IMG/VR virus record: IMGVR_UViG_3300038527_000002
Source: a virus
Direction: 5' to 3' (one strand)
Length of the DNA stretch: 41,345 bases
In this document: positions 108 through 41,345 of the stretch, one piece after another
Numbering within the stretch: the stretch's first letter is position 1
Layout: the number at the start of each line of letters is the position of its first letter
The notes under the pieces: model-generated
The model's input: only the letters and a program-made list of their open reading frames with translations
The model's database searches: none
What the model was told of the DNA's origin: nothing
Made by a program: the position numbers and the translations under genes

Positions 108-1809
108 GCTGATCGCTGGTAGTGTTGGGCCGCATCTTGGGATACAGAATTGCGAAGATATTTCAATATCTTCTGCTGAGATATGGGGTGGAATAACAAG
201 TTGTAGATATTGCGACTTTTACAATTTTAAAATTGAGAGCGCAACAGCATATATTACGCTTTGCGATTATCTTGATATTGACAATAGCTATCTTCGTGGC
301 ATATCGTGGATTAGTAAGGTATCAGGAACAGGGTATAATGAATTAGCTTCTTCAATCTCGGGCTGTACTATTGACGGGGAGTTGGAAGAATTAGGAGCTG
401 GTTATGGTTCGGGAACGAAATTCACCCTCACAGATTGCGTTATAGGAAAATCTGGTGACATAAAGCGAAGCAATGGATATGTTAGGGAAACACGCTTAGA
501 CGGAAATATTAAAGATGTTGCTGTGCTTGCTGTGGATAATTCTATTATTGAAACTCAGTCTAATTTTGATGATTATACATCATTAACGATTACTGATTCC
601 TATATTGGTGCTTCCGTTAATGCAAATCAGCAAGAATCAACCCCCGAAGTTGGGAGTATAATAAGAAGTCACATACACGCAAAAACTGTTCTCCCAGACA
701 CGTTCACAATTACTGATTCGGAGATTAGCGGTACATTTGACGGAGCAACAGCACTACGGAGTGTTATACTTTCGTCTTCTGTTGTGCTTGATTCGAATAT
801 AACTGATTCGATAATTCACAATTCTACTGTAAATGGAACAATTAATGGCTGTGTTATACAGGATTCAACGGTTAGTGGTACGATTACCGATTCACGAATA
901 TTTAATAGTACATCAAGAGGTGTGATTACAAATAGTGAGATACATTCCAGCATTTCGGGAACGATAACTAATTCTATCGTTGAAGCTGGGGCAACAATTT
1001 ATGCAATATCCTTAGACTGCTTAATTATATCAAATAGCCGTATAGGCTCAAGGGCGTACATCTTCAAAGACGACTACGGGACATTAACGATCACGGATTG
1101 CGATTTTAATGGCAAATATGAATGTAACGCAACTTCGGAAAATAACGAATCGCTAACACGATGCAAGGTTGAGTATGGAGCAACTATTCTTGATACTTTA
1201 AATCTTACGCTTGAGGATTGCAAATTACTTTACGGGGCAAAACTTTCTTTGACGGAGTTTTACACTTACAAGCTTTATAATACGATAATTGATTACGATG
1301 CCACAAGACCAGTTTTGTATGATCTTTCAGGGGATACCACTTTAGGGAAAGTTGGTGCTTGTGCTTACATTACTGGCTCAATAGAGATCGAAGATGCAGC
1401 TACTGTTGGCGGGGATGGGTATAATATTGTCGCCTGGGGAACATCACTGACAGCAACAACAGTAAAAGAAAACGGTGTATCAATATCAATAAACAGCGAG
1501 GGCAATTGGATTGAGATTATTGTTGATAGCCCGGGGTGGTATAATATTCATTATCTTGCTTCGGCAAAATCTAACACAGCAACCGATGTTGAAACGGCAG
1601 CTTTCTTTTCTTCTACTATGCAGCCGCAAGCAAATAATATTAAGTCTTATATTATTCAGGATGCATCAACTGCGAGATATGTCAATTCAAGCCTTGACGG
1701 AAAGATTTATTTTGAAGATTCAACGCCGCTAAAATTCCTATACAAATCGGCTGTTGATGTGCAACTGACAATATATAAAATAACAATAAACGTAGAAAAA
1801 GAATTATGA
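1..1809 (+). CDS. Tail fibre / receptor-binding protein, C-terminal part (continuation of 39676..41345), beta-helix-like repeats
   Basis: Frame 1 is open from base 1, so the track start at 382 is an internal TTG. Degenerate repeats (TITDSEISGT, NITDSIIHNSTVNGTINGCVIQDSTVSGTITDSRIFNST...) resemble parallel beta-helix tailspikes/fibres. Position is in the tail module. Confidence 0.75.
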   Translation, partial: NVSEISGNTGVFSDVQTNDVDCPIKNNTSIILSECRLIAGSVGPHLGIQNCEDISISSAEIWGGITSCRYCDFYNFKIESATAYITLCDYLDIDNSYLRGISWISKVSGTGYNELASSISGCTIDGELEELGAGYGSGTKFTLTDCVIGKSGDIKRSNGYVRETRLDGNIKDVAVLAVDNSIIETQSNFDDYTSLTITDSYIGASVNANQQESTPEVGSIIRSHIHAKTVLPDTFTITDSEISGTFDGATALRSVILSSSVVLDSNITDSIIHNSTVNGTINGCVIQDSTVSGTITDSRIFNSTSRGVITNSEIHSSISGTITNSIVEAGATIYAISLDCLIISNSRIGSRAYIFKDDYGTLTITDCDFNGKYECNATSENNESLTRCKVEYGATILDTLNLTLEDCKLLYGAKLSLTEFYTYKLYNTIIDYDATRPVLYDLSGDTTLGKVGACAYITGSIEIEDAATVGGDGYNIVAWGTSLTATTVKENGVSISINSEGNWIEIIVDSPGWYNIHYLASAKSNTATDVETAAFFSSTMQPQANNIKSYIIQDASTARYVNSSLDGKIYFEDSTPLKFLYKSAVDVQLTIYKITINVEKEL

Positions 1810-3074
1810 GCGATTACAGTTTACCAAGAATTAAAGAGAGCGAACTGCCCGAAGCTACGAGCATAGACAAAGTACGTGTTCTTGACAATGCAGGAAAGAG
1901 CGTTTGGGTAGAGAAAGAAGACCTACCGATCACAGAAGCACAGGTAACGGGGCTTACCGCTGCTTTGGCTCTCAAGGCAGATGCGAATATACAGATTGCG
2001 GCTGGGGCTGGTCTTACTGGCGGTGGCGACCTTTCAGAGAACAGAACGATAGACGTTGTTTCTGCTGATGATGGTATCACGGTCAACTCCGACAACATTA
2101 AGTTGAATATCGTTAATGACTTAGTTACCAACTCTGCCACACGACCGCTGAGTGCTGCTCAGGGCAAGAAGCTGCAAGACGAAAAAGAGTCTCTCTCGAA
2201 TAAGTCAACAGATATTGTAGCTGATGCAGCAAGCACAACGAAATATCCGTCTGTTAAGTTAATTAAAGATTATGCCGATTCTCTCGTTGTAGGTTTATTA
2301 GACTATCGTGGAGGATACGATGCTTCCGTTAATGCCTATCCTTCCTCTGGTGGCTCAGGGACAGGCGGGGCTATCCTAAAGGGCGATATGTGGGTTGTTT
2401 CCGTAGCGGGTACGATTGACGGTCACGCCATACACGCAGGGGATTCTCTGATCGCCAATGAAGATACACCCGGGCAGACAACGGCTAAATGGAACACCGT
2501 ACAATCAAACCTCAGCTATGTTCCCGAAGACGTGGCTAACAAGAGCACCAACGTAACAAGTGATGCCGCTTCGGACACAAAATATCCTTCCGTTAAAGCC
2601 ACAAAGACCTATGCCGATACAAAGGTAAGCCTGACGGGGGACGAAACGATTACAGGCGTTAAGACCTTTGGCGATAGTCCTGTTGTTCCTACACCTTCGG
2701 GTAATACTGATGCGGCAAATAAAGCGTATGTTGATTCAGCTGTTGTAACCACTGATAACGTCAGTCAGGACATAGAAACCGACACGGGTTCAACGACAAA
2801 AGTACCCTCTGTTGTAGCCACCGAGGCATACGTTACCCCCGTGCGTTACGACAACGAAGCGATAGACTTAGACAACTTGGGCGATGTGCGTTTGCGAAGC
2901 ATTGACGTTGATAATTTACCCAAGATTTGCGGATTTGATATGTTCGTTATAAGCACCACAGCACCCAGTGTTGCACCCGATTTCATCCCGCAGATATGGG
3001 TTGATACAACGGCAAAAAAAGCCTACATTGCTGTTGGCGTTTCGACTTCGGCTGATTTTATTGCATTAAACTAA
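1806..3074 (+). CDS. Tail fibre protein with repeated KYPSVK-type motifs
   Basis: ATGA overlap with the upstream fibre gene. Internal repeats NKSTDIVADAASTTKYPSVKLIKDYAD / NKSTNVTSDAASDTKYPSVKATKTYAD / TGSTTKVPSVVATEAYV are typical of phage fibre shafts. Confidence 0.7.
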   Translation: MSDYSLPRIKESELPEATSIDKVRVLDNAGKSVWVEKEDLPITEAQVTGLTAALALKADANIQIAAGAGLTGGGDLSENRTIDVVSADDGITVNSDNIKLNIVNDLVTNSATRPLSAAQGKKLQDEKESLSNKSTDIVADAASTTKYPSVKLIKDYADSLVVGLLDYRGGYDASVNAYPSSGGSGTGGAILKGDMWVVSVAGTIDGHAIHAGDSLIANEDTPGQTTAKWNTVQSNLSYVPEDVANKSTNVTSDAASDTKYPSVKATKTYADTKVSLTGDETITGVKTFGDSPVVPTPSGNTDAANKAYVDSAVVTTDNVSQDIETDTGSTTKVPSVVATEAYVTPVRYDNEAIDLDNLGDVRLRSIDVDNLPKICGFDMFVISTTAPSVAPDFIPQIWVDTTAKKAYIAVGVSTSADFIALN

Positions 3075-3080
3075 AAAGAT

Positions 3081-4244
3081 ATGAATAATTTAATTAAGCA
3101 ACGCCCCGAAGTAGGGGATATAATGATTATCGTTGACGGCAAGCGTAGGTTTGTCAGAGGAAGCGAATGTACTAAGGAGTTTATTGACACTCAGGATGCC
3201 GTCGGAGTGGTATTCTTCGTTCAGGGCAACAGGTTTTGGATTGTTGGAGGAGTGAATAACCAAACGAAGAAATTTTCTGCTGTTGCCGATTATGAGATAA
3301 CGGCAATCCCTTCGGCAACCGGAGATTATGCTGTTGTTCTTAACGGCGTGGCGCAAGGTGATTTTACCTACACAAAGAGCGATGGCACACTTTCGGAATT
3401 TGTCACCCAGCTTGACGCTTGGTTAAAATCCAGACCAGCTGGCTCGAAAGCCTTGAAGTGGGAAGCGTATATGAACTCAGAGAAAGCCTATCTTCAAATG
3501 TCAACGTACAATGAATATGAAAACACGGTAACAATAGCGGGCACTTCGCTTACTAAGCTAATAGCTACAGAGCTGCCCGCGTTCTCTTCGAACAGGAATC
3601 AGATAAAACAAAGAACAACATACGTTGGGATGTGCCGAAAAAGAGTTGAGGATTTTACGAAAAATGAAACAGGAGGGAATTATAACCCCACAACAGTTAT
3701 GGATGGGGTCACAAAGCTATATGAAACTTATCCTTGTTCAGAGATATATTACAACGGAGAAAATGGAACTGGATTGAGAGCGAATTTTTCTACCTATTCA
3801 GCATACATTGACGCCTGTATGCTGTTGGACAGAGAACTCGATTACGGGGCTGCGCAATATAGAGATGGGCGGTATTATACAAGCCTATTAAATAAACAAG
3901 TATTGATTAACGGAACACCAACGCCCGCCTACTCTGCTGTTGATTATTGTGCAAATTATGACTCAGGAGTATCTGGATACGGCGCAGGAACTTTCTGGAT
4001 GCCTTCAGTATACGAGGGAGCGCAGCTTATGAGAAATATCGGCGGTACTAACGACTTGGTGAATACAGCTCTTGGTAAAAAGACAGGATGGGGCTCGATA
4101 AGTAGCACCTCGAATAGGTGGTTGTGCGGTAGGTACTCTTCCACCCTCGCTTGGAACTACTACAGCCTCGGAGTCCTCATCAGCTACCGCTTTTACTACT
4201 CGAGCTATGTGTCGGCTGTCTCCGCTTTCAATATTAATGATTAA
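3081..4244 (+). CDS. DGR target (variable) protein, C-terminal C-type-lectin/DUF1566-like domain carrying the VR; likely receptor-binding tail protein
   Basis: 387 aa. The C-terminus ...AVDYCANYDSGVSGYGAGTFWMPSVYEGAQLMRN...SNRWLCGRYSSTLAWNYYSLGVLISYRFYYSSYVSAVSAF contains the VR. The gene sits directly after two fibre genes. Confidence 0.85.
   Translation: MNNLIKQRPEVGDIMIIVDGKRRFVRGSECTKEFIDTQDAVGVVFFVQGNRFWIVGGVNNQTKKFSAVADYEITAIPSATGDYAVVLNGVAQGDFTYTKSDGTLSEFVTQLDAWLKSRPAGSKALKWEAYMNSEKAYLQMSTYNEYENTVTIAGTSLTKLIATELPAFSSNRNQIKQRTTYVGMCRKRVEDFTKNETGGNYNPTTVMDGVTKLYETYPCSEIYYNGENGTGLRANFSTYSAYIDACMLLDRELDYGAAQYRDGRYYTSLLNKQVLINGTPTPAYSAVDYCANYDSGVSGYGAGTFWMPSVYEGAQLMRNIGGTNDLVNTALGKKTGWGSISSTSNRWLCGRYSSTLAWNYYSLGVLISYRFYYSSYVSAVSAFNIND
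4108..4230 (+). repeat. DGR variable region (VR)
   Basis: Aligns to 4738-4860 at offset 630. There are 15 mismatches, every one opposite a TR adenine. The first non-A mismatch is at 4227. Confidence 0.9.
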
Positions 4245-4252
4245 CGATTAAA

Positions 4253-4663
4253 ATGGCGAGCGGTTTGATCCGCTCGCAACTCTCTATGGCATCAAAAATA
4301 AATAAAACAAGCATCTATGTTGACGTGCAGGAGTTATTCATAACACTCTATGATGCACAATTTGAAATGCCAAAACGGGATAGGCCTATAATTGTTAATC
4401 GGGCACTTGGTCATTGCGAAATGGTGGCCGCATATTTTGCTTTATCGTATCGCACGGACGATAAAATAAAATACACAAAGCTGCTTTTTGCAGAATTTGA
4501 GGCTTTGAAAATGAACACACGTTCTATCTTACGCCCCGATAGACCAATGATACAAAACGAAAGCACGTGTAATAAAATACGTAATTATATAGCGAGAATT
4601 GATGAAAGTATAGTTAAGTGGTATAAATCGTTAGAGTTGAAACGGCAAGAAGAATGCCCTTGA
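4253..4663 (+). CDS. avd: DGR accessory variability determinant (Avd-like, small helical basic protein)
   Basis: 136 aa, located between the target gene and TR, which is the position Avd occupies in BPP-1-type DGRs. Predicted helical and Lys/Arg-rich. The assignment rests on position and size, not on a motif match. Confidence 0.7.
   Translation: MASGLIRSQLSMASKINKTSIYVDVQELFITLYDAQFEMPKRDRPIIVNRALGHCEMVAAYFALSYRTDDKIKYTKLLFAEFEALKMNTRSILRPDRPMIQNESTCNKIRNYIARIDESIVKWYKSLELKRQEECP
4256..4277 (+). promoter_or_regulatory. GC-rich hairpin ~26 nt downstream of the VR (candidate DGR target-recognition hairpin/cruciform)
   Basis: GCGAGCGG-TTTGAT-CCGCTCGC is a perfect 8-bp stem with a 6-nt loop. 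It starts 3 nt after the avd ATG. Confidence 0.6.
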
Positions 4664-4672
4664 TGGCATTCT
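4651..4672 (+). promoter_or_regulatory. Hairpin at the avd 3' end, upstream of TR
   Basis: AGAATGCC-CTTGAT-GGCATTCT is an 8-bp stem. The avd stop codon TGA (4661-4663) lies in the loop. Confidence 0.5.
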
Positions 4673-4737
4673 CAGTCCAGAGATAATGAAAGGAGCGAAG
4701 GCTCTCATTTAGAGCTATGTTTGCACTTCGCCTCAAG

Positions 4738-4860
4738 CCTCGAATAGGTGGTTGTGCGGTAGGTACTCTTCCAACAACGCTTGGAACTACAACAGCAACG
4801 GAGTCCTCAACAACAACAACTTTTACAACTCGAACTATGTGTCGGCTGTCTCCGAACTCA
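4738..4860 (+). repeat. DGR template repeat (TR), A/AAC-rich
   Basis: Cognate of the VR. It carries 11 in-frame AAC codons (..SSNNAWNYNSNGVLNNNNFYNSNYVSAVSE..). It is non-coding by DGR precedent, although it is in frame with the RT ORF. Confidence 0.9.
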
Positions 4861-4874
4861 TTATAATAAGGAAT

Positions 4875-6056
4875 ATGGTTAAAGAAGAAGATATGTACAC
4901 TGTTTATTTCCTCGCACGCAAAAATAAAAGGCGTAGCGAAGATGCTGTGATATTCGAGCTCGACTATGAGTGTAGAATAAAAAATCTCGTCTCTGCCATA
5001 AACGAAAAAACCTACCGATCTAATGCCAACTATACTTTCATAGCTCGCAGACCAAAGCCAAGAGAAGTTTTTGCCTGCGAACTCGAATCAAGGCTAATAC
5101 AGTGGTATATTATTTGGAGGATAAACCCTATATTAGAAACTATCCTAACCTCTCGAACATTCAACAATAGGGTTGGAATGGGTGTTGACTCAGCTATTGC
5201 TCAGATACAAAAAGACATTAAAGATGTGAGCCAAGATTTCACCATTGATGCATATTACATCCAATGGGATTTGTCAGGATATTTCCCAAATGCCATCTGT
5301 GAGATAGCCAGAGAACAACTGCAAAACGTATGTGAAAAGAACTATACAGGAGATGATAAAGAGGATATAATGTGGATGATATCTATCGCCTGCAACGCCT
5401 TGCCAGCAAGACATTGCTACCGAAAATCACCACCCGAGATGTGGAGCGAAATAGAACAAGGGAAAAGCCTGTTTGAAAAAGATGACGGCACAGGTGGGGC
5501 AATAGGGTTTCTTATATGGCAGGTGGCTATGAACCTTTATCTAAACGATGTGGATAAATGGGCTATCGAAGATATGGGGCTGCATTATGTGCGCTTCGTA
5601 GATGATGCCATCATTGTGGTAAATAATAAAGAGGCAGCCCTTTTATTGTTGCCATTATTTAGGGAGAAATATAGAGATGTAGGAGCACAAATGCATAAAA
5701 AGAAGTTTGTATGCCAACACATATCAAAAGGCGTGCGTGTTCTTGGTTCTATAATAAAATTTAACCGCTTGTATATAAATAACAGAACTATAAGAAACGC
5801 AGAAAAAAGAATAAAACAATTTAATAAGTGTCATAATAAAAAGAATAATATGCTGAATTTCCAGGCCACAATAAATTCATATTTTGGTTTACTAAAAAAC
5901 AGAACTGAATTTAATAACATAGTAAAACTATACAATATGATCGACAAAAGATGGTGGCGTTTTTTTACGATGGACTGGGAAAGGATGTGTATAATAGCAA
6001 ATGATGAGTATAAGTATAATCAAATAATAAAACAAAACTACTATGAAAGAAATTAA
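4875..6056 (+). CDS. DGR reverse transcriptase
   Basis: RT motifs: IQWDLSGYFPNA (motif A Asp), AIGFLIWQVAMNLYLNDVD (the region matching the DGR-type [I/L]GxxxSQ motif) and YVRFVDDAIIV (YxDD-type box). The first ATG after TR is 4875; the track start at 4752 is a TTG inside TR. Confidence 0.9.
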   Translation: MVKEEDMYTVYFLARKNKRRSEDAVIFELDYECRIKNLVSAINEKTYRSNANYTFIARRPKPREVFACELESRLIQWYIIWRINPILETILTSRTFNNRVGMGVDSAIAQIQKDIKDVSQDFTIDAYYIQWDLSGYFPNAICEIAREQLQNVCEKNYTGDDKEDIMWMISIACNALPARHCYRKSPPEMWSEIEQGKSLFEKDDGTGGAIGFLIWQVAMNLYLNDVDKWAIEDMGLHYVRFVDDAIIVVNNKEAALLLLPLFREKYRDVGAQMHKKKFVCQHISKGVRVLGSIIKFNRLYINNRTIRNAEKRIKQFNKCHNKKNNMLNFQATINSYFGLLKNRTEFNNIVKLYNMIDKRWWRFFTMDWERMCIIANDEYKYNQIIKQNYYERN

Positions 6057-6267
6057 CGAACAATGTGTTATCATACACAACGAAAAGGCTTTATTGCGTG
6101 ATACGGATTATGTAGTCATTCGGGCGGCAGAAAGGGGCGAAGCCATAGACGAGGCTACAAAAGAACGCAGGGAAGAAGCAAGACGAAGAATAAATGCTGC
6201 TGAGGCTGTTATTCGAGAGTTGGAAGAAGCTAAAGAATTGCAAGAAGCTAAAGAACTGGAATTATAA
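6043..6267 (+). CDS. Hypothetical protein with a coiled-coil tail; motif faintly resembles tail-fibre-assembly/DUF4376 C-termini
   Basis: 74 aa with ..LLRDTDYVVIRAAERGEAIDEATKERREEARRRIN... An 18-nt tandem repeat gaagctaaagaa(t/c)tg(c/g)aa x2 lies around 6224-6260. Confidence 0.5.
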   Translation: MKEINEQCVIIHNEKALLRDTDYVVIRAAERGEAIDEATKERREEARRRINAAEAVIRELEEAKELQEAKELEL

Positions 6268-6268
6268 A

Positions 6269-6535
6269 ATGGAAAAGAAGCGTGACATACCCGCTTGGGT
6301 AGCAATAACAGTAACCGTGTTCCTGAGTATTACGGCAGCCATAGCCGCATACTCTGCACGTATGTACAAAGTGGAAAGGGATGTTGATGTTCACGAAGTA
6401 CGCATTCAGCGTATGGAGGAAACCCAGATTAAGCAAGAAACGATAAACACGGAGGTAATTAATATGCTTCACGAGATCAGGGAATCAACAATCCGCATTG
6501 AGGGAGAGCTGAAACTAAAGAAAGATAAAGAATGA
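6269..6535 (+). CDS. Membrane protein (N-terminal TM helix plus coiled coil), lysis-cassette associated (holin/antiholin or spanin-like)
   Basis: ATG at 6269 follows the upstream stop. The TM segment is IPAWVAITVTVFLSITAAIAAYSA and the C-terminal half is charged and helical. ATGA overlap with the endolysin gene. Confidence 0.55.
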   Translation: MEKKRDIPAWVAITVTVFLSITAAIAAYSARMYKVERDVDVHEVRIQRMEETQIKQETINTEVINMLHEIRESTIRIEGELKLKKDKE

Positions 6536-6966
6536 GGCTGACGGATAACTTTACCACGCAGGAAGTAACACGCTCTGAAACGGCTCAGCGTCTTGGGATA
6601 GACAACAGTCTATCAATTGAAATGCTCGATAATGCCTATTGCTTCGCTAAGGCTGTTCTTCAACCATTGAGGGAGAAGATAGGACTACCGTTCCTTATTT
6701 CTTCGTGGTACAGGTGCAAGGCTCTTAACGAAGCGGTAGGAGGTACACATAATTCGGCTCATTTAAAGGCTCAGGCCGTTGATTTTGTTATTGGTGGACT
6801 ATCAGCACGTCAGACGTATGAAATCGTCTTAGAAACGCTTAAAACGCTTCATATCCCTTTTGACCAGCTCATATTTGAATCATTTACAAAAGACGGGCAT
6901 ACAACAGAGTGGGTTCATCTGAGCTGGGAGAGAGAGGGGAACAGATTTGAAAATTTCGAGCTATGA
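6532..6966 (+). CDS. Endolysin, peptidase M15 (VanY/L-Ala-D-Glu peptidase-like zinc peptidase)
   Basis: H-x6-D zinc motif (SAHLKAQAVDF) plus a distal His (EWVHLS). 144 aa, flanked by membrane proteins. Confidence 0.85.
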   Translation: MRLTDNFTTQEVTRSETAQRLGIDNSLSIEMLDNAYCFAKAVLQPLREKIGLPFLISSWYRCKALNEAVGGTHNSAHLKAQAVDFVIGGLSARQTYEIVLETLKTLHIPFDQLIFESFTKDGHTTEWVHLSWEREGNRFENFEL

Positions 6967-7220
6967 AAAATAAAGAGATATTCCAATACGTTCTCGGTGG
7001 CTTGATTGTCGCTGGGTTCTTTGCGTTACTAATCCTGCTTGTGCTTTCGGCTGTGCCAACGGAGAATAAAGACCTGCTAAACCTTGTAGTTGGAACTTTG
7101 ATAGGCTCTTTCTCGAGTATAGTTTCTTACTTCTTCGGGTCAAGTCTTGGTTCGAGCAAAAAAGACCAACTACTGAATGAAAAAATTACTAATACTTCTA
7201 ATCCTGCTAACAGGGTGTAA
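6963..7220 (+). CDS. Holin (two predicted TM helices)
   Basis: 85 aa with segments LGGLIVAGFFALLILLVLSAV and LVVGTLIGSFSSIVSYFFG and a charged C-terminus. ATGA overlap with the endolysin gene. Confidence 0.65.
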   Translation: MKNKEIFQYVLGGLIVAGFFALLILLVLSAVPTENKDLLNLVVGTLIGSFSSIVSYFFGSSLGSSKKDQLLNEKITNTSNPANRV

Positions 7221-20118: not shown

Positions 20119-20195
20119 ACAAACAAAGTAAAGTACAATATTCCAAACAAACAAGCGTTTTGTGCTCAAGTTAGTACGCTATTGTGTTAAATTAG

Positions 20196-20266
20196 TTGCG
20201 GGGACAGGATTCGAACCTGTGCTGTGAGTTTATGAGGCTCACGTGATGCCACTTCACTACCCCGCC
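20196..20266 (-). tRNA. tRNA with CAU anticodon (Met, or Ile2 if lysidine-modified)
   Basis: Hand fold of the reverse complement: GGCGGGG TA GTGA AGTGGCA TCAC G TGAGC CTCATAA ACTCA CAGC ACAGG TTCGAAT CCTGT CCCCGCA A. The D and T arms are canonical. Mismatches at 1:72 (G:A) and 31:39 (C:A). No encoded CCA. Confidence 0.7.
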
Positions 20267-20592: not shown

Positions 20593-20996
20593 AGATAGTA
20601 ATTCATTAGTTCCTCAAATCCGGCATCTTTAAAGTAGGGCAGATAGCAGCCGAGTTCTTCCTGCGCCCACGCTTTTAGTTTCGTCATCAGGTCGGACATT
20701 TCGCCCTGCTCCATTTCGGAGGTTCTGAAGTCCGTCTGTTCAATTTTTCCATTCAGGGGGTTTCGGTAGTTTCGCTGCCCAAAAATCTCCCTTATCACAT
20801 CCCGCTTGCAGTCCTCAAATGAGGTATATCCTAAGTGGTCTTGCAACACCCGTATCCAAGCGTGCAAGAGCGCATTTTGGTCATTGTTGCGCTTCCTTGT
20901 AACTCTCAACTCAAAGACCTCAGTACCGTTAATTAGTCGGTTGAAATAGACCTCCGCCTGTCGTTTGTCAAGCGGGTTTTTAGGATTATATTTCAT
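20589..20996 (-). CDS. NinB/Orf-like recombination mediator (tentative)
   Basis: 135 aa. ..RKRNNDQNALLHAWIRVL.. resembles the NinB R-x-x-x-QN..LH/W motif. It lies adjacent to the exonuclease/ERF pair. Confidence 0.4.
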   Translation of the reverse strand: MKYNPKNPLDKRQAEVYFNRLINGTEVFELRVTRKRNNDQNALLHAWIRVLQDHLGYTSFEDCKRDVIREIFGQRNYRNPLNGKIEQTDFRTSEMEQGEMSDLMTKLKAWAQEELGCYLPYFKDAGFEELMNYYL

Positions 20997-21844
20997 CGTA
21001 TTGTCATTTTTAGATATCCTTTCCTTGTGCCCGTTTTCTCAAACCGTGAATAGATTTCGGGCATTTCTTCCTTAAGACGCTTCGAGTCTAAAGTCGTGGT
21101 TGTAGATTCAGGTACTAAGGTCAGCGTAAGGTTGTCGGTTTTGAGCGTTTTTAAGCCCATTTGCGCCATTTTCTCACCCAAGCCTGTAAGAAGTACCTTT
21201 TTGCGCTCTTCGTACATCTCAGCCTCTTGTTTGATCTGTATGATCGTTCTTTCAAGGTCGAGTAATCGCTGCATCGAGCGTTCCTCACTCAGGTAGCTTT
21301 CGCCCAAGAGTTCAGCCTGAATTAAAGCCTCCACCTGTTCGTCAGATTTTCGTTCAACCCCCACAAAGGTACATTCTTTTCCCCGTAGGTGTACCCCCAT
21401 CAAGCCCTTTACTTTCTGTCCCGTTTGTCGCTCGAACAGATAAGCACAAATTGATAGTTGCCACGATACCCGTTCTTTGTCCAGAGTAGTAGAAGTCTTA
21501 AAATCGTACAGAAAGCCATCTTCGCCAACAAAGTCGATAGCCGTAGCAACACGTTCATCACCAACGATAAATTCGCACACGGTACATTGTATTCCCTTGC
21601 TTACGAAAGCCATAGCCTCGTCAGTAGTTGGGAAATCGCCATTTTCGTAGTAGTCTTGAATTTCTTTATGAACCAGAGAGCCAAATTCGGCATACTTCTT
21701 GAGAACAGATTCCGGCACATTCTGCATCTTGCTGCCAAAGATTTGGCGGTCGATCATTCGCGTTATCCCCTGAATAGGGAGTAATTCCCCGTTCAGAGTA
21801 TAGGTATGTTTCTCTTTGTCAAAGACGATTTTAGATTGTATCAT
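20993..21844 (-). CDS. PD-(D/E)XK exonuclease (RecB/Cas4-like fold) with coiled-coil C-terminus
   Basis: ..FGSLVHKEIQ.., ..AIDFVGEDGFLYDFKTS.. (D...D-x-K) and ..WQLSICAYL.. (QxxxY). ATGA-coupled to the ERF gene. Confidence 0.65.
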   Translation of the reverse strand: MIQSKIVFDKEKHTYTLNGELLPIQGITRMIDRQIFGSKMQNVPESVLKKYAEFGSLVHKEIQDYYENGDFPTTDEAMAFVSKGIQCTVCEFIVGDERVATAIDFVGEDGFLYDFKTSTTLDKERVSWQLSICAYLFERQTGQKVKGLMGVHLRGKECTFVGVERKSDEQVEALIQAELLGESYLSEERSMQRLLDLERTIIQIKQEAEMYEERKKVLLTGLGEKMAQMGLKTLKTDNLTLTLVPESTTTTLDSKRLKEEMPEIYSRFEKTGTRKGYLKMTIR

Positions 21845-22386
21845 AATTCTTCCTTTCTTTTGGAAAACAATTCCTTAAACTCTACTCTTTCGGTAGAATT
21901 TAGGGTTTTCCAAATGTCGATCAGTTCCTGTTCAGATTTGGCCAAATTTATAGCTAATTCTATTGTTTCAGCCGCCTTGCTCGGTGCTTTCTTTTCCGCT
22001 CTGGGGTTGCCGTGATCATTCGTTGCATCAGGGTCTTTCGTATCATCTATAAGGAACAGCCCATTAAGGGCATACTTCCTTGCGTACGAAGATGCTGATC
22101 CTGTGATTTGCGCAGCATCCATTCCCTTCTTTGTTTCTTCTTCCCGGGCAAAGGCGCAAACCTCTGTCGTATTGTCCCCGTCTAAGAATGTAGCTGTTGC
22201 TTTCACGTACACACGTCCACCTACTTCAACGATCGTGTCGGATATGGTCATCGTGCATTCGTGCTTTTTAAGAAGCGGTTTGACGGCTTCGAGAATATCC
22301 TCTGCGCTTCGGTAGTTGTAATTACCGAACGTGTTTCTTTGGTTTTTCGGTGCTTTAAGCTCCGACTGAATTAAATTAAGTTTCAT
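21841..22386 (-). CDS. erf: ERF-family single-strand annealing protein
   Basis: ..NTFGNYNYRSAEDILEAVKPLL... and ..GSASSYARKYALNGLFLIDD.. are typical ERF motifs. Confidence 0.7.
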   Translation of the reverse strand: MKLNLIQSELKAPKNQRNTFGNYNYRSAEDILEAVKPLLKKHECTMTISDTIVEVGGRVYVKATATFLDGDNTTEVCAFAREEETKKGMDAAQITGSASSYARKYALNGLFLIDDTKDPDATNDHGNPRAEKKAPSKAAETIELAINLAKSEQELIDIWKTLNSTERVEFKELFSKRKEEL

Positions 22387-38705: not shown

Positions 38706-39679
38706 CAATACCTAAACTCTGCCCGTTGGTTTTTCAAGATCCCACGATGGCAACAGAGGGCACGTTCTACCCGATGTGCTACACTCAGAAATGGGTGCCT
38801 AATGATAGCACAAAGGTTCAGGTATGGTTTGCCGATGCCACACCCTCGGAGGTCTTCGCCCTTGAGGTCTTTGATGAGTATGGCACTTGTCGGGGTATAT
38901 TCCCGTTCTATTGGGCTACGCTCTCAGCAGGGTACGACTATGCTACGGCTCAGTTAAGGTTTTCTGGACTTAGCGGGATATACGAGGTACGAATAACAAG
39001 CGAAGAATCCCTTTATCCTTTGCTTTCGGAATCTACGCCAGTTGTGGGAGAATATTACGTTCACGGCCATAACATTTGGAAATATACCGGAGGGCCGTAT
39101 AACACAAATGACCCCTGGATTCCCACCGGTGGCGTTGAGATAGCAACAGAAAGCCTTTTAGATACGTTGGCTGATTCATGGCCAATAGAAGTTGGGAACC
39201 ACACGGACACTTTCCTTATAGCTTACGGGAATACCCGCAATGACTTTGAAACCGTGTTCGGGGACTTCGATTACGATACATTTACGTTCCGTATTGAGGG
39301 GGGCTTTATGCCTGACGGCTACCAGGCTGGGGCGGACTTTTCACTATTCACGAACCAGCATCAGGAAGATACTCTAACCTATGCGATGCCCTTTGATACC
39401 CACGTATTGACGATTGGCGATTCGCTGGGTGTGCCGTGGTATTTTTTGGAAAAGATAAACCACATATTTTGTTGCGATATTACCCTTGTCGAGTGGGTTC
39501 AGTACACCCGTACGGGGGATTTAGAGATTGAATGGACAAGCAAAAAAACAGGTATCGGGTCTATCTCTTTAAAGACTGTTACGAACAGGATGACTCAGAA
39601 TATCGATGGCGAGATAATCATTACAGACGAAAGCTCTGTTCCATTGTCTAATGAAGATGAAAAAATATTGATACTATGA
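38684..39679 (+). CDS. Baseplate / fibre-attachment protein (by position)
   Basis: 331 aa. An alternative start at 38747 (MATEGTF..) is possible. Confidence 0.4.
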   Translation: MLYTSRITIPKLCPLVFQDPTMATEGTFYPMCYTQKWVPNDSTKVQVWFADATPSEVFALEVFDEYGTCRGIFPFYWATLSAGYDYATAQLRFSGLSGIYEVRITSEESLYPLLSESTPVVGEYYVHGHNIWKYTGGPYNTNDPWIPTGGVEIATESLLDTLADSWPIEVGNHTDTFLIAYGNTRNDFETVFGDFDYDTFTFRIEGGFMPDGYQAGADFSLFTNQHQEDTLTYAMPFDTHVLTIGDSLGVPWYFLEKINHIFCCDITLVEWVQYTRTGDLEIEWTSKKTGIGSISLKTVTNRMTQNIDGEIIITDESSVPLSNEDEKILIL

Positions 39680-41345
39680 TAAAAGAAAACGAATTACCTA
39701 CACAGACCACGTTACCTTCGAGTTGGTTTCTTCGTATGGTCAGCGACACAGGGGCGTCGAAGCGCATAGCCTCGTCGCTGGTTAAGTGGAGCATTGAAGA
39801 TGTTATAGACCTTGAAACGTCGCTCTCTGGGAAACAGGACTTATCTACTTTAAAGAGTATGGTTGCTTATCTTGATGCCACAGGTCAAAGTGTTGGTTCT
39901 GGTTTCGATATGGGGACAATCGCTGATACTACGGAATTAGATGCTGCTTTTTGCGGGCTTTATACCGCCCCTGTTCCTTTCGCGATAACTAATATCGGCG
40001 ATGTTTATGGTGTGTTAGCGATAAATCGTAACGTTCTTGGTGACGGGGCTACGGAGGATAACACGGCAGCCTCTCAGCTTCTCTTTACGTCTAATGGGCT
40101 ATACTTGCGCTCTTACTCCACTTCTTGGGGATTATATCGTTATGTTGGTGGCGGTGTGCAGCCTCAACCCGTTACCCGGGCGCAGTTGATAGACCTTATG
40201 GATGAGCACGAGTTAGTACAGGGAACGAAGTACATAATCACCGACCACCCGAATGATATGGGAATCATTGTTGAGGCGGCCTCGTCTTCTCAAATTTCTC
40301 AATATGCCTTACGTCTGGCCTGTCAGCCGAAATATTATGTGGCTGGGCCATATATGACGGGTTCTGGTGGAACGGTTGAGGAATATTGGAATGGTGTTTA
40401 TGAGCACGGCTCAACACCGGCCGAGGGTGAGATATACATTTATGCCGGTATGGTATATAAAAACCTTACAGGCGATGACACAACACCCCCGGGTGAATAT
40501 ATCCTCAATTCCACCGACTGGGAATTAAAGACCGTTGAATGGGGCGACTACTATTCACCAAATATCTGCGAAGTAATTTACAAGATAGGGTTAACCACCT
40601 CTCCCGGTGTTGAGCCGTGCGGTGTTGTTCAAAGACAGACGGATATTAATAATAATACTTTCGGGCAAGCCTTAACGGGTGATCCAACTTTGGCACAGAG
40701 AACGCGGATAGATTATAACGACTGGGGGCATCCGGGAATAAAGAAATGCGAGCTGACAAATTGCTGGGCTAATAAAGAGGATTGCGAGTTTATTGGTGTA
40801 CGTGGTTATGGACAGGTGTACAGGAATAAGACCACAAATTTAGCCTTTGTTCGCCTTTCACAAATAATACGGGTACTTTTGCCGGCTGACGATGTTTTGA
40901 TATATGACAATGCTTCGCTTACTGTTTTTGACTGCGATATTAGAGGTGACATTTATTCAAATTCCACTGTTATAGTAAGATACAGCGATATAAATGCTTA
41001 TGTGGCCTCTAATTTTTCGCTTACAATCACCGATTGCGAATCAAACAGTCCTATTACGGGTAATGAGTCCAGCAGTATTACATCGTCTTATATCTTTGGT
41101 ACTTTTAGAGAAAATGAGATTTGTGTTGTAACAAATTCAACTCTTAATGCTGATTTCACAAATAATACGGGTACTTTTGATTTTATTGAAAACAAGGGGT
41201 TGATAGATAACAACACATTAACTGCATCAAGGTTGAATAATGTTTCTGAGATATCAGGGAATACAGGAGTTTTTTCTGATGTTCAGACAAACGACGTTGA
41301 TTGCCCGATAAAAAATAACACTTCAATAATATTATCAGAATGCAG
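39676..41345 (+). CDS. Tail fibre / receptor-binding protein, N-terminal part. The ORF runs off the window end and continues at position 108; full length is 1123 aa on the closed genome.
   Basis: ATG at 39676 overlaps the upstream stop (ATGA). No stop occurs before the window end. Position 41239 (= position 1) is codon position 1, the same frame as the ORF ending at 1809. Confidence 0.75.
   Translation, partial: MIKENELPTQTTLPSSWFLRMVSDTGASKRIASSLVKWSIEDVIDLETSLSGKQDLSTLKSMVAYLDATGQSVGSGFDMGTIADTTELDAAFCGLYTAPVPFAITNIGDVYGVLAINRNVLGDGATEDNTAASQLLFTSNGLYLRSYSTSWGLYRYVGGGVQPQPVTRAQLIDLMDEHELVQGTKYIITDHPNDMGIIVEAASSSQISQYALRLACQPKYYVAGPYMTGSGGTVEEYWNGVYEHGSTPAEGEIYIYAGMVYKNLTGDDTTPPGEYILNSTDWELKTVEWGDYYSPNICEVIYKIGLTTSPGVEPCGVVQRQTDINNNTFGQALTGDPTLAQRTRIDYNDWGHPGIKKCELTNCWANKEDCEFIGVRGYGQVYRNKTTNLAFVRLSQIIRVLLPADDVLIYDNASLTVFDCDIRGDIYSNSTVIVRYSDINAYVASNFSLTITDCESNSPITGNESSSITSSYIFGTFRENEICVVTNSTLNADFTNNTGTFDFIENKGLIDNNTLTASRLNNVSEISGNTGVFSDVQTNDVDCPIKNNTSIILSEC
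41239..41345. repeat. Second copy of the 107-nt terminal overlap
   Basis: Identical to 1-107 by direct comparison. Confidence 0.9.

Follow-up and report, generated by a model that had tools for sequence, protein, structure and literature searches.

Whether a phage carries a complete system for the targeted hypermutation of one of its own tail-associated genes, and what the varied protein might bind, is the question raised by positions 3081-6056 of the IMG/VR virus record IMGVR_UViG_3300038527_000002, whose whole stretch of 41,345 nucleotides is here called the window. An earlier note had described this region as a complete diversity-generating retroelement (DGR) aimed at a protein of the tail-fibre module. 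We consider it very probable that the region is a complete DGR of Architecture B within a complete circular tailed-phage genome of ~41.2 kb, for which a BPP-1-like mechanism and a losable enzyme module are proposed. The gene order of target, avd, template region (TR), and reverse transcriptase (RT) is that of Architecture B of Wu et al. (PMC5758913), in line with the earlier description. The parts of the element are as follows.

3081..4244, + strand: DGR target gene (387 aa); beta-rich N-terminal part and a predicted Lcl_C/DUF1566-like C-terminal domain, whose last strands are the variable region (VR)
4108..4224, + strand: VR, diversified zone; 13 differences from the TR, all at TR adenines
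4286..4663, + strand: avd-type accessory gene (125 aa, isoelectric point 9.0), assigned from homologue starts, bAvd matches in relatives, and a four-helix bundle model
4738..4854, + strand: TR; 32 adenines and 11 AAC codons in the target frame
4875..6056, + strand: DGR RT (393 aa) with catalytic FVDD, PKPR, and IGFLIWQ; the next gene starts at 6043, within the end of the RT gene

The locus has the anatomy of a DGR, the differences between its two repeats are adenine-specific, and its RT and accessory protein are homologous to RT and Avd of known DGRs. VR 4108-4224, which encodes residues 343-381 of the 387-aa target, and TR 4738-4854 align without a gap at an offset of 630, and in this ungapped comparison the mismatches of the diversified zone are confined to TR adenines (13/13). 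A repeat search picked the same pair unprompted (4108-4234 and 4738-4864, 87% identity), which is the sole long direct repeat within 2500-7000. When both strands were scanned at the TR non-adenine positions for a second VR or other TR-like copy, only the TR and the known VR scored. The 15 mismatches listed in the earlier note (4144, 4146, 4147, 4161, 4167, 4168, 4180, 4183, 4185, 4188, 4189, 4197, 4204, 4225, and 4226) were all reproduced, each opposite a TR adenine, and the first non-adenine mismatch does lie at 4227 (TR C, VR T); the identical 5' stretch, given there as 33 nt, measures 36 nt (4108-4143). Positions 4225-4226 have the same letters in every VR and others in every TR, in the window as well as in related loci (designated by L-numbers and taken from public assemblies; all comparisons are at the assembly consensus level). 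They are therefore fixed differences between the initiation of mutagenic homology (IMH) at the VR end and its counterpart IMH* at the TR end, leaving 13 changes by mutagenesis. The divergence between IMH and IMH* noticed earlier is thus present and begins at 4225 instead of 4227.

Ten of the 11 AAC codons of the TR are recoded in the VR (to T, L, Y, L, I, S, Y, R, Y, and S), as had been read before. No stop codon can be reached by adenine substitution in the TR, and the theoretical repertoire amounts to ~1.2e18 proteins for all adenine-containing codons and to 8.7e12 for the AAC codons alone. The TR also lies in the RT reading frame, which is open from TTG 4752 (4752-6056). Some gene callers predicted a 434-aa 'RT' that starts with the translated TR (L011 and L030), and protein clustering at 90% identity put target and RT in one cluster; an in-frame TR upstream of the RT is an annotation hazard for DGR loci.

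Reverse transcriptase, accessory protein, and boundary elements

The product of 4875..6056 is a DGR RT, as the earlier note had proposed. It matches Pfam RVT_1 (7e-11) and phrog_1423 (1.8e-44), and its top relative of solved structure is chain A of 8ub7, a DGR ribonucleoprotein of a Bordetella phage (E 2.7e-11), followed by a group II maturase (7.7e-3). The nearest RTs among GenBank phages come from the DGR-bearing Bacuni phages, and the closest cultured relatives are Bacteroides phages with 31-33% identity; a scan of IMG/VR with the RT yielded one partial locus. The catalytic DD is invariant across 121 aligned relatives. The published signature of DGR RTs is [I/V/L]GxxxSQ, and in the BPP-1 enzyme (bRT) both I181, the first residue of this motif, and R74 promote adenine mutagenesis (PMC7826257). 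Here the signature reads IGxLIWQ, with Trp in the place of Ser and with Ile, Gly, and Gln kept; by residue numbers counted along the alignment, bRT R74 is matched by the Arg of PKPR. Because Trp is found in 113 of the 121 relatives (Phe in the other 8), the Ser-to-Trp exchange appears to be a conserved clade variant, not a lesion. Of the RT motifs that the earlier note likened to the BPP-1 type, the catalytic FVDD is present and IGFLIWQ departs from IGSLTSQ.

The accessory gene had been placed at 4253..4663 and called avd-like. Since the 49 relatives of its product found by exhaustive HMMER search align from query residue 12-17, the start is most likely the ATG at 4286; the Avd-type assignment is retained, and the longer reading frame is probably 11 codons too long. 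Although the protein alone has no match in Pfam, NCBIfam, PHROG, or PDB sequence searches, 19 of its 36 aligned relatives match Pfam bAvd (PF22296). Its structural model is a four-helix bundle (predicted local distance difference test score, pLDDT, 92), for which Foldseek returned the Avd structures 4dwl and 8ub7 and the 23S-IVS proteins 2gsc and 2rld at template modelling (TM) scores of 0.65-0.83, with 0.68-0.80 for the Avd chains of 4dwl/8ub7. The model and these matches support an Avd-type basic four-helix bundle.

An alternative is that the RT is that of a different retroelement or of a defence system, such as a group II intron, a retron, or a DRT, and that the 119-nt repeat is an unrelated duplication. 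In NCBIfam the RT matches a group II maturase only below threshold (48 bits, where the cut-off is 300), its PADLOC matches are weak and of the generic RT/DRT kind, and some distant relatives are labelled 'retron-type' in GenBank. On the other hand, the PADLOC scores do not exceed 65 bits for any family, neither intron nor retron RNA was found with Rfam, the closest structural relative is a DGR RT, and the RT adjoins an Avd-fold gene and a TR. Moreover, with 34 adenines in the 119 nt of TR 4738-4856, the chance that 15 of 15 mismatches fall on adenines is P = 4.5e-10 (hypergeometric; this count includes the IMH edge at 4225-4226). The likelihood of this alternative is negligible, and it is already refuted for practical purposes.

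In BPP-1, the VR ends in an IMH and the TR in an IMH*, and only the VR is followed by a GC-rich inverted repeat; the IMH is the 3' limit of A-to-N mutagenesis (PMC5758913). The corresponding features of the window are the following.

4209..4234, + strand: IMH-like 3' end of the VR; GC-rich block GTGTCGGCTGTCTCCG common to the TR, then CTTTCAATAT, invariant in all VRs and unlike the TR
4839..4864, + strand: IMH*-like 3' end of the TR; identical GC-rich block, then AACTCATTAT, with no inverted repeat found after it
4256..4278: GC-rich inverted repeat with an 8-bp stem (GCGAGCGG/CCGCTCGC) and a 6-nt loop, 31 nt past the GC-rich VR end, seen in the centroid structure

The arrangement of IMH, IMH*, and a hairpin at the VR only is that of DGRs, and the roles of these elements here are predicted. 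After the GC-rich block, every VR of the window and the related loci continues with GCTTTCAATAT and every TR with GAACTCATTAT, and the protein end ...VSAVSAFNIND is invariant among relatives. With the avd start moved to 4286, the hairpin at 4256-4278 is intergenic, and by analogy it is a candidate for the hairpin or cruciform of DGR target recognition. Hairpins of unrelated sequence stand at the equivalent position in L001 (10-bp stem, 4-nt loop) and L005 (11-bp stem, 4-nt loop), and none of the three is followed by a T run. No inverted repeat was found downstream of the TR, and no hairpin in L002, which is without a nearby cassette. The avd stop codon lies within a second 8-bp hairpin (AGAATGCC / GGCATTCT, 4651-4672), 66 nt ahead of the TR; this hairpin may be an RNA element of the DGR or mark the end of an RNA.

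The mechanism proposed on these grounds is modelled on the BPP-1 paradigm, which is the source for how cDNA synthesis would be primed, for a complex of Avd with the RT, for what hairpin and IMH would do, and for receptor binding as the role of the target. The avd-TR-RT region would be transcribed, and the RT, bound to the basic four-helix-bundle Avd, would copy the TR RNA into cDNA with misincorporation opposite template adenines only. This cDNA would then replace the VR, its homologue at the 3' end of the target gene, with the GC-rich IMH block setting the 3' limit of information transfer and the GC-rich hairpin ~30 nt downstream labelling the VR, and not the TR, as recipient. The predicted outcome is a tail-associated protein with a lectin surface of the Lcl_C/DUF1566 type that varies at ~19 codons on a fixed scaffold, which probably changes the host surface ligand that is bound.

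Target protein and the neighbouring fibre module

The target belongs to a previously unannotated family with >130 relatives in metagenomes. It has no match in Pfam, PHROG, or PDB sequence searches and no tblastn match in 50,697 GenBank phage records. Its AlphaFold model (pLDDT 96) was matched by Foldseek to the C-terminal domain of Legionella Lcl (8q4e, probability 0.99, TM 0.50, 102 columns) and to DUF1566 proteins in BFVD (probability 1.00), and four of 69 family members match Pfam Lcl_C weakly (best E 7.9e-4). DUF1566/CLec2 is a recognised class of DGR targets (PMC5758913), and these weak signals from fold and family point to a VR domain of this C-type-lectin class and not of the Mtd class. 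No Mtd or Mtd_N match was obtained for the target, even at E up to 10 for the N-terminus. The earlier comparison with BPP-1-type DGRs does not extend to the target, which is not Mtd-like and whose Lcl_C/DUF1566-type signal is weak. The Tentaclin family (PMC10743442) was rejected as a relative because its topology, an N-terminal lectin together with Ig domains, differs.

Directly upstream of the target lies a second tail gene.

1806..3074, + strand: tail fibre gene, Pfam Phage_fiber_rpt (3e-08)

The C-terminal module of the fibre protein (~77-110 aa) is found ahead of the target gene in all related loci, and fibre residues 310-422 are conserved upstream of the target homologues of L001-L010. 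In L024 (2069-2491; also in L025 and L026) the module is part of a separate 141-aa protein that matches Pfam Mtd_N (E 9e-13) and whose C-terminal 77 aa are 99% identical to those of the 422-aa fibre protein, which correspond to 2841-3071 of the window. Because the module is found on different N-terminal parts, what precedes the target is a shuffled module. The fibre gene itself has single-nucleotide polymorphisms (SNPs) confined to three tight patches (1856-1898, 2018-2088, and 2193-2234) in strains that are otherwise 100% identical over 6 kb. The fibre gene was considered as a second hypermutation target and rejected, the patches being mosaic and mostly synonymous and pointing to recombination with diverged relatives.

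The earlier note had also suggested tropism switching. That the target always follows a fibre gene and has a putative lectin-like fold is consistent with it, gene position and fold being the grounds for the suggestion. It is unlikely that the DGR is real and its target binds another ligand, such as environmental glycans or matrix, so that no tropism switch takes place. Bacterial DGR targets of the lectin type do serve as adhesins (PMC5758913), the target is without homology to known receptor-binding proteins, and it is the last gene before the lysis genes. What speaks for host binding is the constant position behind a fibre gene whose C-terminal module is conserved together with the target, the joining of this module in some relatives to Mtd_N, the fibre-attachment domain of the BPP-1 tropism determinant, and the observation that VR differences follow host range in the related Bacuni phages (PMC8143477).

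Variation among relatives and loss of the avd-TR-RT module

In the wild, the TR is invariant against varying VRs, and natural variation is restricted to adenine-containing codons. Over 127 nt, the TR is identical in L011 and L030, both from other samples, and differs by one base in L017 and L023. Four VRs on these identical or near-identical TRs are all distinct, with adenine/non-adenine differences from the TR of 13/0 in the window, 10/0 in L011, 12/1 in L030, and 10/2 in L023. Among 19 distinct 387-aa variants, the number of residues per site is 6.5 at adenine-changeable codons, 1.26 at other VR codons, and 1.34 in the rest of the protein (Fisher P = 2.9e-5). The same adenine bias is seen in the more distant cassettes of L001 and L005, whose RTs are 66% and 53% identical to that of the window, respectively. 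The VR heterogeneity that the earlier note wished to see in the population is thus found at the assembly level, with identical TRs and VRs that differ at adenines.

Several observations weigh against a complete and functional DGR with a lectin-type target. The RT signature motif is non-canonical (Trp for Ser). The RNA around the TR (4640-5010) is not unusually stable (z = -0.8), and a priming structure of the BPP-1 type was not identified in it. The target matches no lectin family by sequence, and its fold matches span only ~100 columns at TM ~0.5 on the target side. Finally, 16 contigs from several samples, with 99.1-100% identity in the region, have exactly the VR of the window, so either VR turnover is not fast at the consensus level or the window variant is favoured.

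The recurrence of one VR, the departure of the RT motif from the canon, and the many close relatives that live without avd-TR-RT, which makes the module dispensable, would also suit a fossil DGR, in which the parts are recognisable, diversification has ended, and the VR differences are historical. We regard this as quite unlikely. The RT and avd reading frames are intact, and the catalytic DD and the determinants of adenine mutagenesis are conserved. The 16 contigs are essentially one strain. The VRs on the identical TRs of L011 and L030 differ at 10-13 adenines and 0-1 other positions, so that the VR has changed faster than any neutral TR site, and L030 has only 2 SNPs against the window in the 2-kb cassette and yet 18 differences in the VR. 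Separately from this, L030 differs from the window at 36 sites in the target body (3161-3940) and at only 2 in the next 2 kb (avd-TR-RT; 4205-6200), a distribution that suggests separate histories of cassette and target body, i.e., modular exchange.

The loss of the module can be followed at the nucleotide level. Contigs with 90-95% identity to the window continue past the target and the hairpin directly into the gene after the RT, and ~1.7 kb of avd-TR-RT are missing; the loci compared are L007-L010, L012-L016, L021, L022, and L024-L029. The missing segment and the five junction forms (the slash marks the joint) are given below.

4311..6036: segment missing from many close relatives (avd-TR-RT); deletion ends at 4250-4320 on the left and 6029-6045 on the right
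Junction J1 (L007-9): ...ATAAAACA / AAACTACTATG
Junction J2 (L013-16, L022): ...AAGCATCTATG / AAAGAAATT
Junction J3 (L012): TAACGAT / ACTACTATG; the hairpin is lost too
Junction J4 (L010, L021, L024-26): ...AAATAAATA / CTATGAAAG
Junction J5 (L028-29): ...ATAAAAC / TACTATG

The first avd codons, which are conserved coding sequence, are kept in every junction form except J3, and the junctions therefore stem from deletion, as opposed to being sites without an insertion. J1 and J2 each retain bases that are missing from the other, so that the number of independent deletions is two or more; J3-J5 could be secondary to J1. The deletion ends sit in A-rich microhomologies that are statistically unremarkable, and we propose that avd-TR-RT was lost by short-homology deletions in A-rich sequence. 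An att-like repeat around the cassette (4291-4320 and 6019-6045) was considered and rejected, as equally good matches to the left sequence occur elsewhere (e.g., at 5761-5801). Neither the intact nor the deleted junctions had a match when scanned in IMG/VR. Contigs with the DGR come, for example, from ENA ERZ724071-76, JGI 3300030360, 3300001760/61, and 3300061265, and ERZ27239170, and populations without it, for example, from ERZ27247770-73, ERZ778607, and ERZ27280794/97.

The genomes without the cassette retain the VR, the IMH, and (except for L012) the hairpin, and their VRs differ mutually and from the shared TR almost only at adenines. Different VRs are even found on the same junction, both for J2 (L013 versus L022) and for J4 (L024 versus L010). 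One reading of this, in which the retained VR, IMH, and hairpin are the cis elements for accepting cDNA, is that the enzyme module is a shared, losable 'public good' and that phages without it are still diversified in trans by co-infecting DGR-positive relatives. We hold this to be unlikely; in more mundane terms, deletion may have recurred at the same microhomologies, or VRs may have been exchanged by recombination. The idea of a faster decay of VRs without a cassette was dropped, since the numbers of non-adenine differences are 0, 0, 1, and 2 in intact and 0, 0, 1, 3, and 4 in deleted loci; clear decay is seen only in L010, where the VR has indels and the hairpin is damaged. Genomes with the DGR and genomes from which it was cleanly deleted, coexisting at 90-95% identity, provide a natural experiment on the cost, the benefit, and the possible trans-action of targeted hypermutation.

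Distant homologues of the target lie on contigs of ~75-98 kb, where RT, avd, and hairpin were not found within 8 kb. These homologues (L002:8001-9167, L003, and similar) are 47-58% identical to the target, the contigs are phage-sized, and a TR was also not found within 8 kb. The ~98-kb contigs include the family of ERZ28573736 scaffold_146. The C-termini of these homologues vary at the same positions, and the VRs of two of them, P0105 and P0116, are identical.

Comparison with known systems and genome context

The BPP-1 DGR (mtd-avd-TR-brt) shares with the present element the order of target, avd, TR, and RT, a VR at the 3' end of a tail-fibre-associated gene, and differences at adenines only. 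Both also have a GC-rich IMH block beyond which the sequences diverge, a GC-rich inverted repeat at the VR and not at the TR, and an Avd with the four-helix-bundle fold; the BPP-1 RT is the closest PDB relative. In contrast to BPP-1, the RT alignment is weak (E 2.7e-11, in two fragments), with IGFLIWQ here and IGSLTSQ there, and the TR ends ~10-20 nt before the RT start codon, so that any spacer RNA must overlap the RT coding sequence. Furthermore, the target is not Mtd, Mtd_N occurs in relatives on a neighbouring fibre-module protein, and the hairpin loop has 6 nt.

The siphoviruses Bacuni F1/F2/F4 of Bacteroides uniformis (PMC8143477) are the nearest cultured phages by RT. They have siphovirus-like genomes of ~40 kb with adjacent target, Avd, TR, and RT, and their targets are lectins of the DUF1566/Fib_succ_major type with the VR in the last ~35-40 residues. 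The differences lie in the RT identity of 31-33% only, in the single target here against two in Bacuni, and in the samples, which here resemble biogas or digester material and not human gut. The Legionella pneumophila DGR (LdtA) has architecture B and a VR of the DUF1566/Lcl_C-type class (CLec2 of Wu et al.), and the best PDB fold match of our VR domain is the Legionella Lcl C-terminal domain; unlike the phage tail-module protein described here, its target is a lipoprotein of a chromosomal, bacterial DGR. The Hankyphage DGR (PMC6199706) is likewise carried by a widespread Bacteroides phage and diversifies a tail-associated protein, whereas Hankyphage is a transposable temperate phage with another genome type and is absent among the RT matches at E <= 1e-5. 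The element shows those DGR hallmarks that could be checked, the one exception being the Trp of the RT motif, and it is taken to work as the BPP-1 DGR does. By target class and host group, it is closest to the Bacuni phages and the Legionella CLec2 class, and its only mildly unexpected aspects are the recurrent module loss and the RT motif variant.

DGRs in Bacteroidota phages are already documented, and this DGR adds an instance and no new principle. What it offers is a clean, fully delimited locus in a complete genome, with four VRs on the same TR as natural replicates, which makes it well suited to testing DGR-calling software and to repertoire modelling. It also defines an unannotated target family of >130 members, some on ~98-kb phage contigs without a nearby RT, and an RT clade in whose signature motif Trp is conserved, beside residues known to tune adenine mutagenesis.

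The two ends of the window are an exact direct repeat of 107 nt (1-107 and 41239-41345), and the window is therefore a circularly closed assembly of ~41,238 bp. It encodes a small and a large terminase subunit, portal, protease, major capsid protein, a 1,050-aa tape measure protein, and fibre proteins; downstream of the fibre genes follow the DGR and then an M15 endolysin. Since no sheath-sized gene was found in the interval from the capsid to the tape-measure gene, a siphovirus-like tail is a reasonable assumption. Relatives of the target are found in metagenome-assembled genomes of Bacteroides and Parabacteroides, and one RT relative is labelled 'uncultured Bacteroides sp.'. As far as can be read from sequence, a siphovirus with a host in Bacteroidota, as suggested before, is plausible. 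The record names suggest samples from biogas or stirred-tank reactors, and near-identical DNA was not found among GenBank phages. A long open reading frame from near 39675 crosses the circular junction and ends at 1809; it encodes a large, repeat-rich tail protein that is the counterpart of the 1,100-aa genes in L007 and L012.

The opposite strand encodes a single-stranded DNA-binding protein, an Erf-like annealing protein, an exonuclease, a DnaD-like loader, a DnaB helicase, a methyltransferase, and a PAPS-reductase-like protein. Two of these genes deserve separate listing.

20993-22386, - strand: Erf-like single-strand annealing protein and exonuclease

It is a speculation that this pair could act in cDNA integration or in the microhomology deletions. 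Within the replication module lies a single tRNA-Met (CAT) gene (20195-20266, - strand), on which ARAGORN and Rfam concur.

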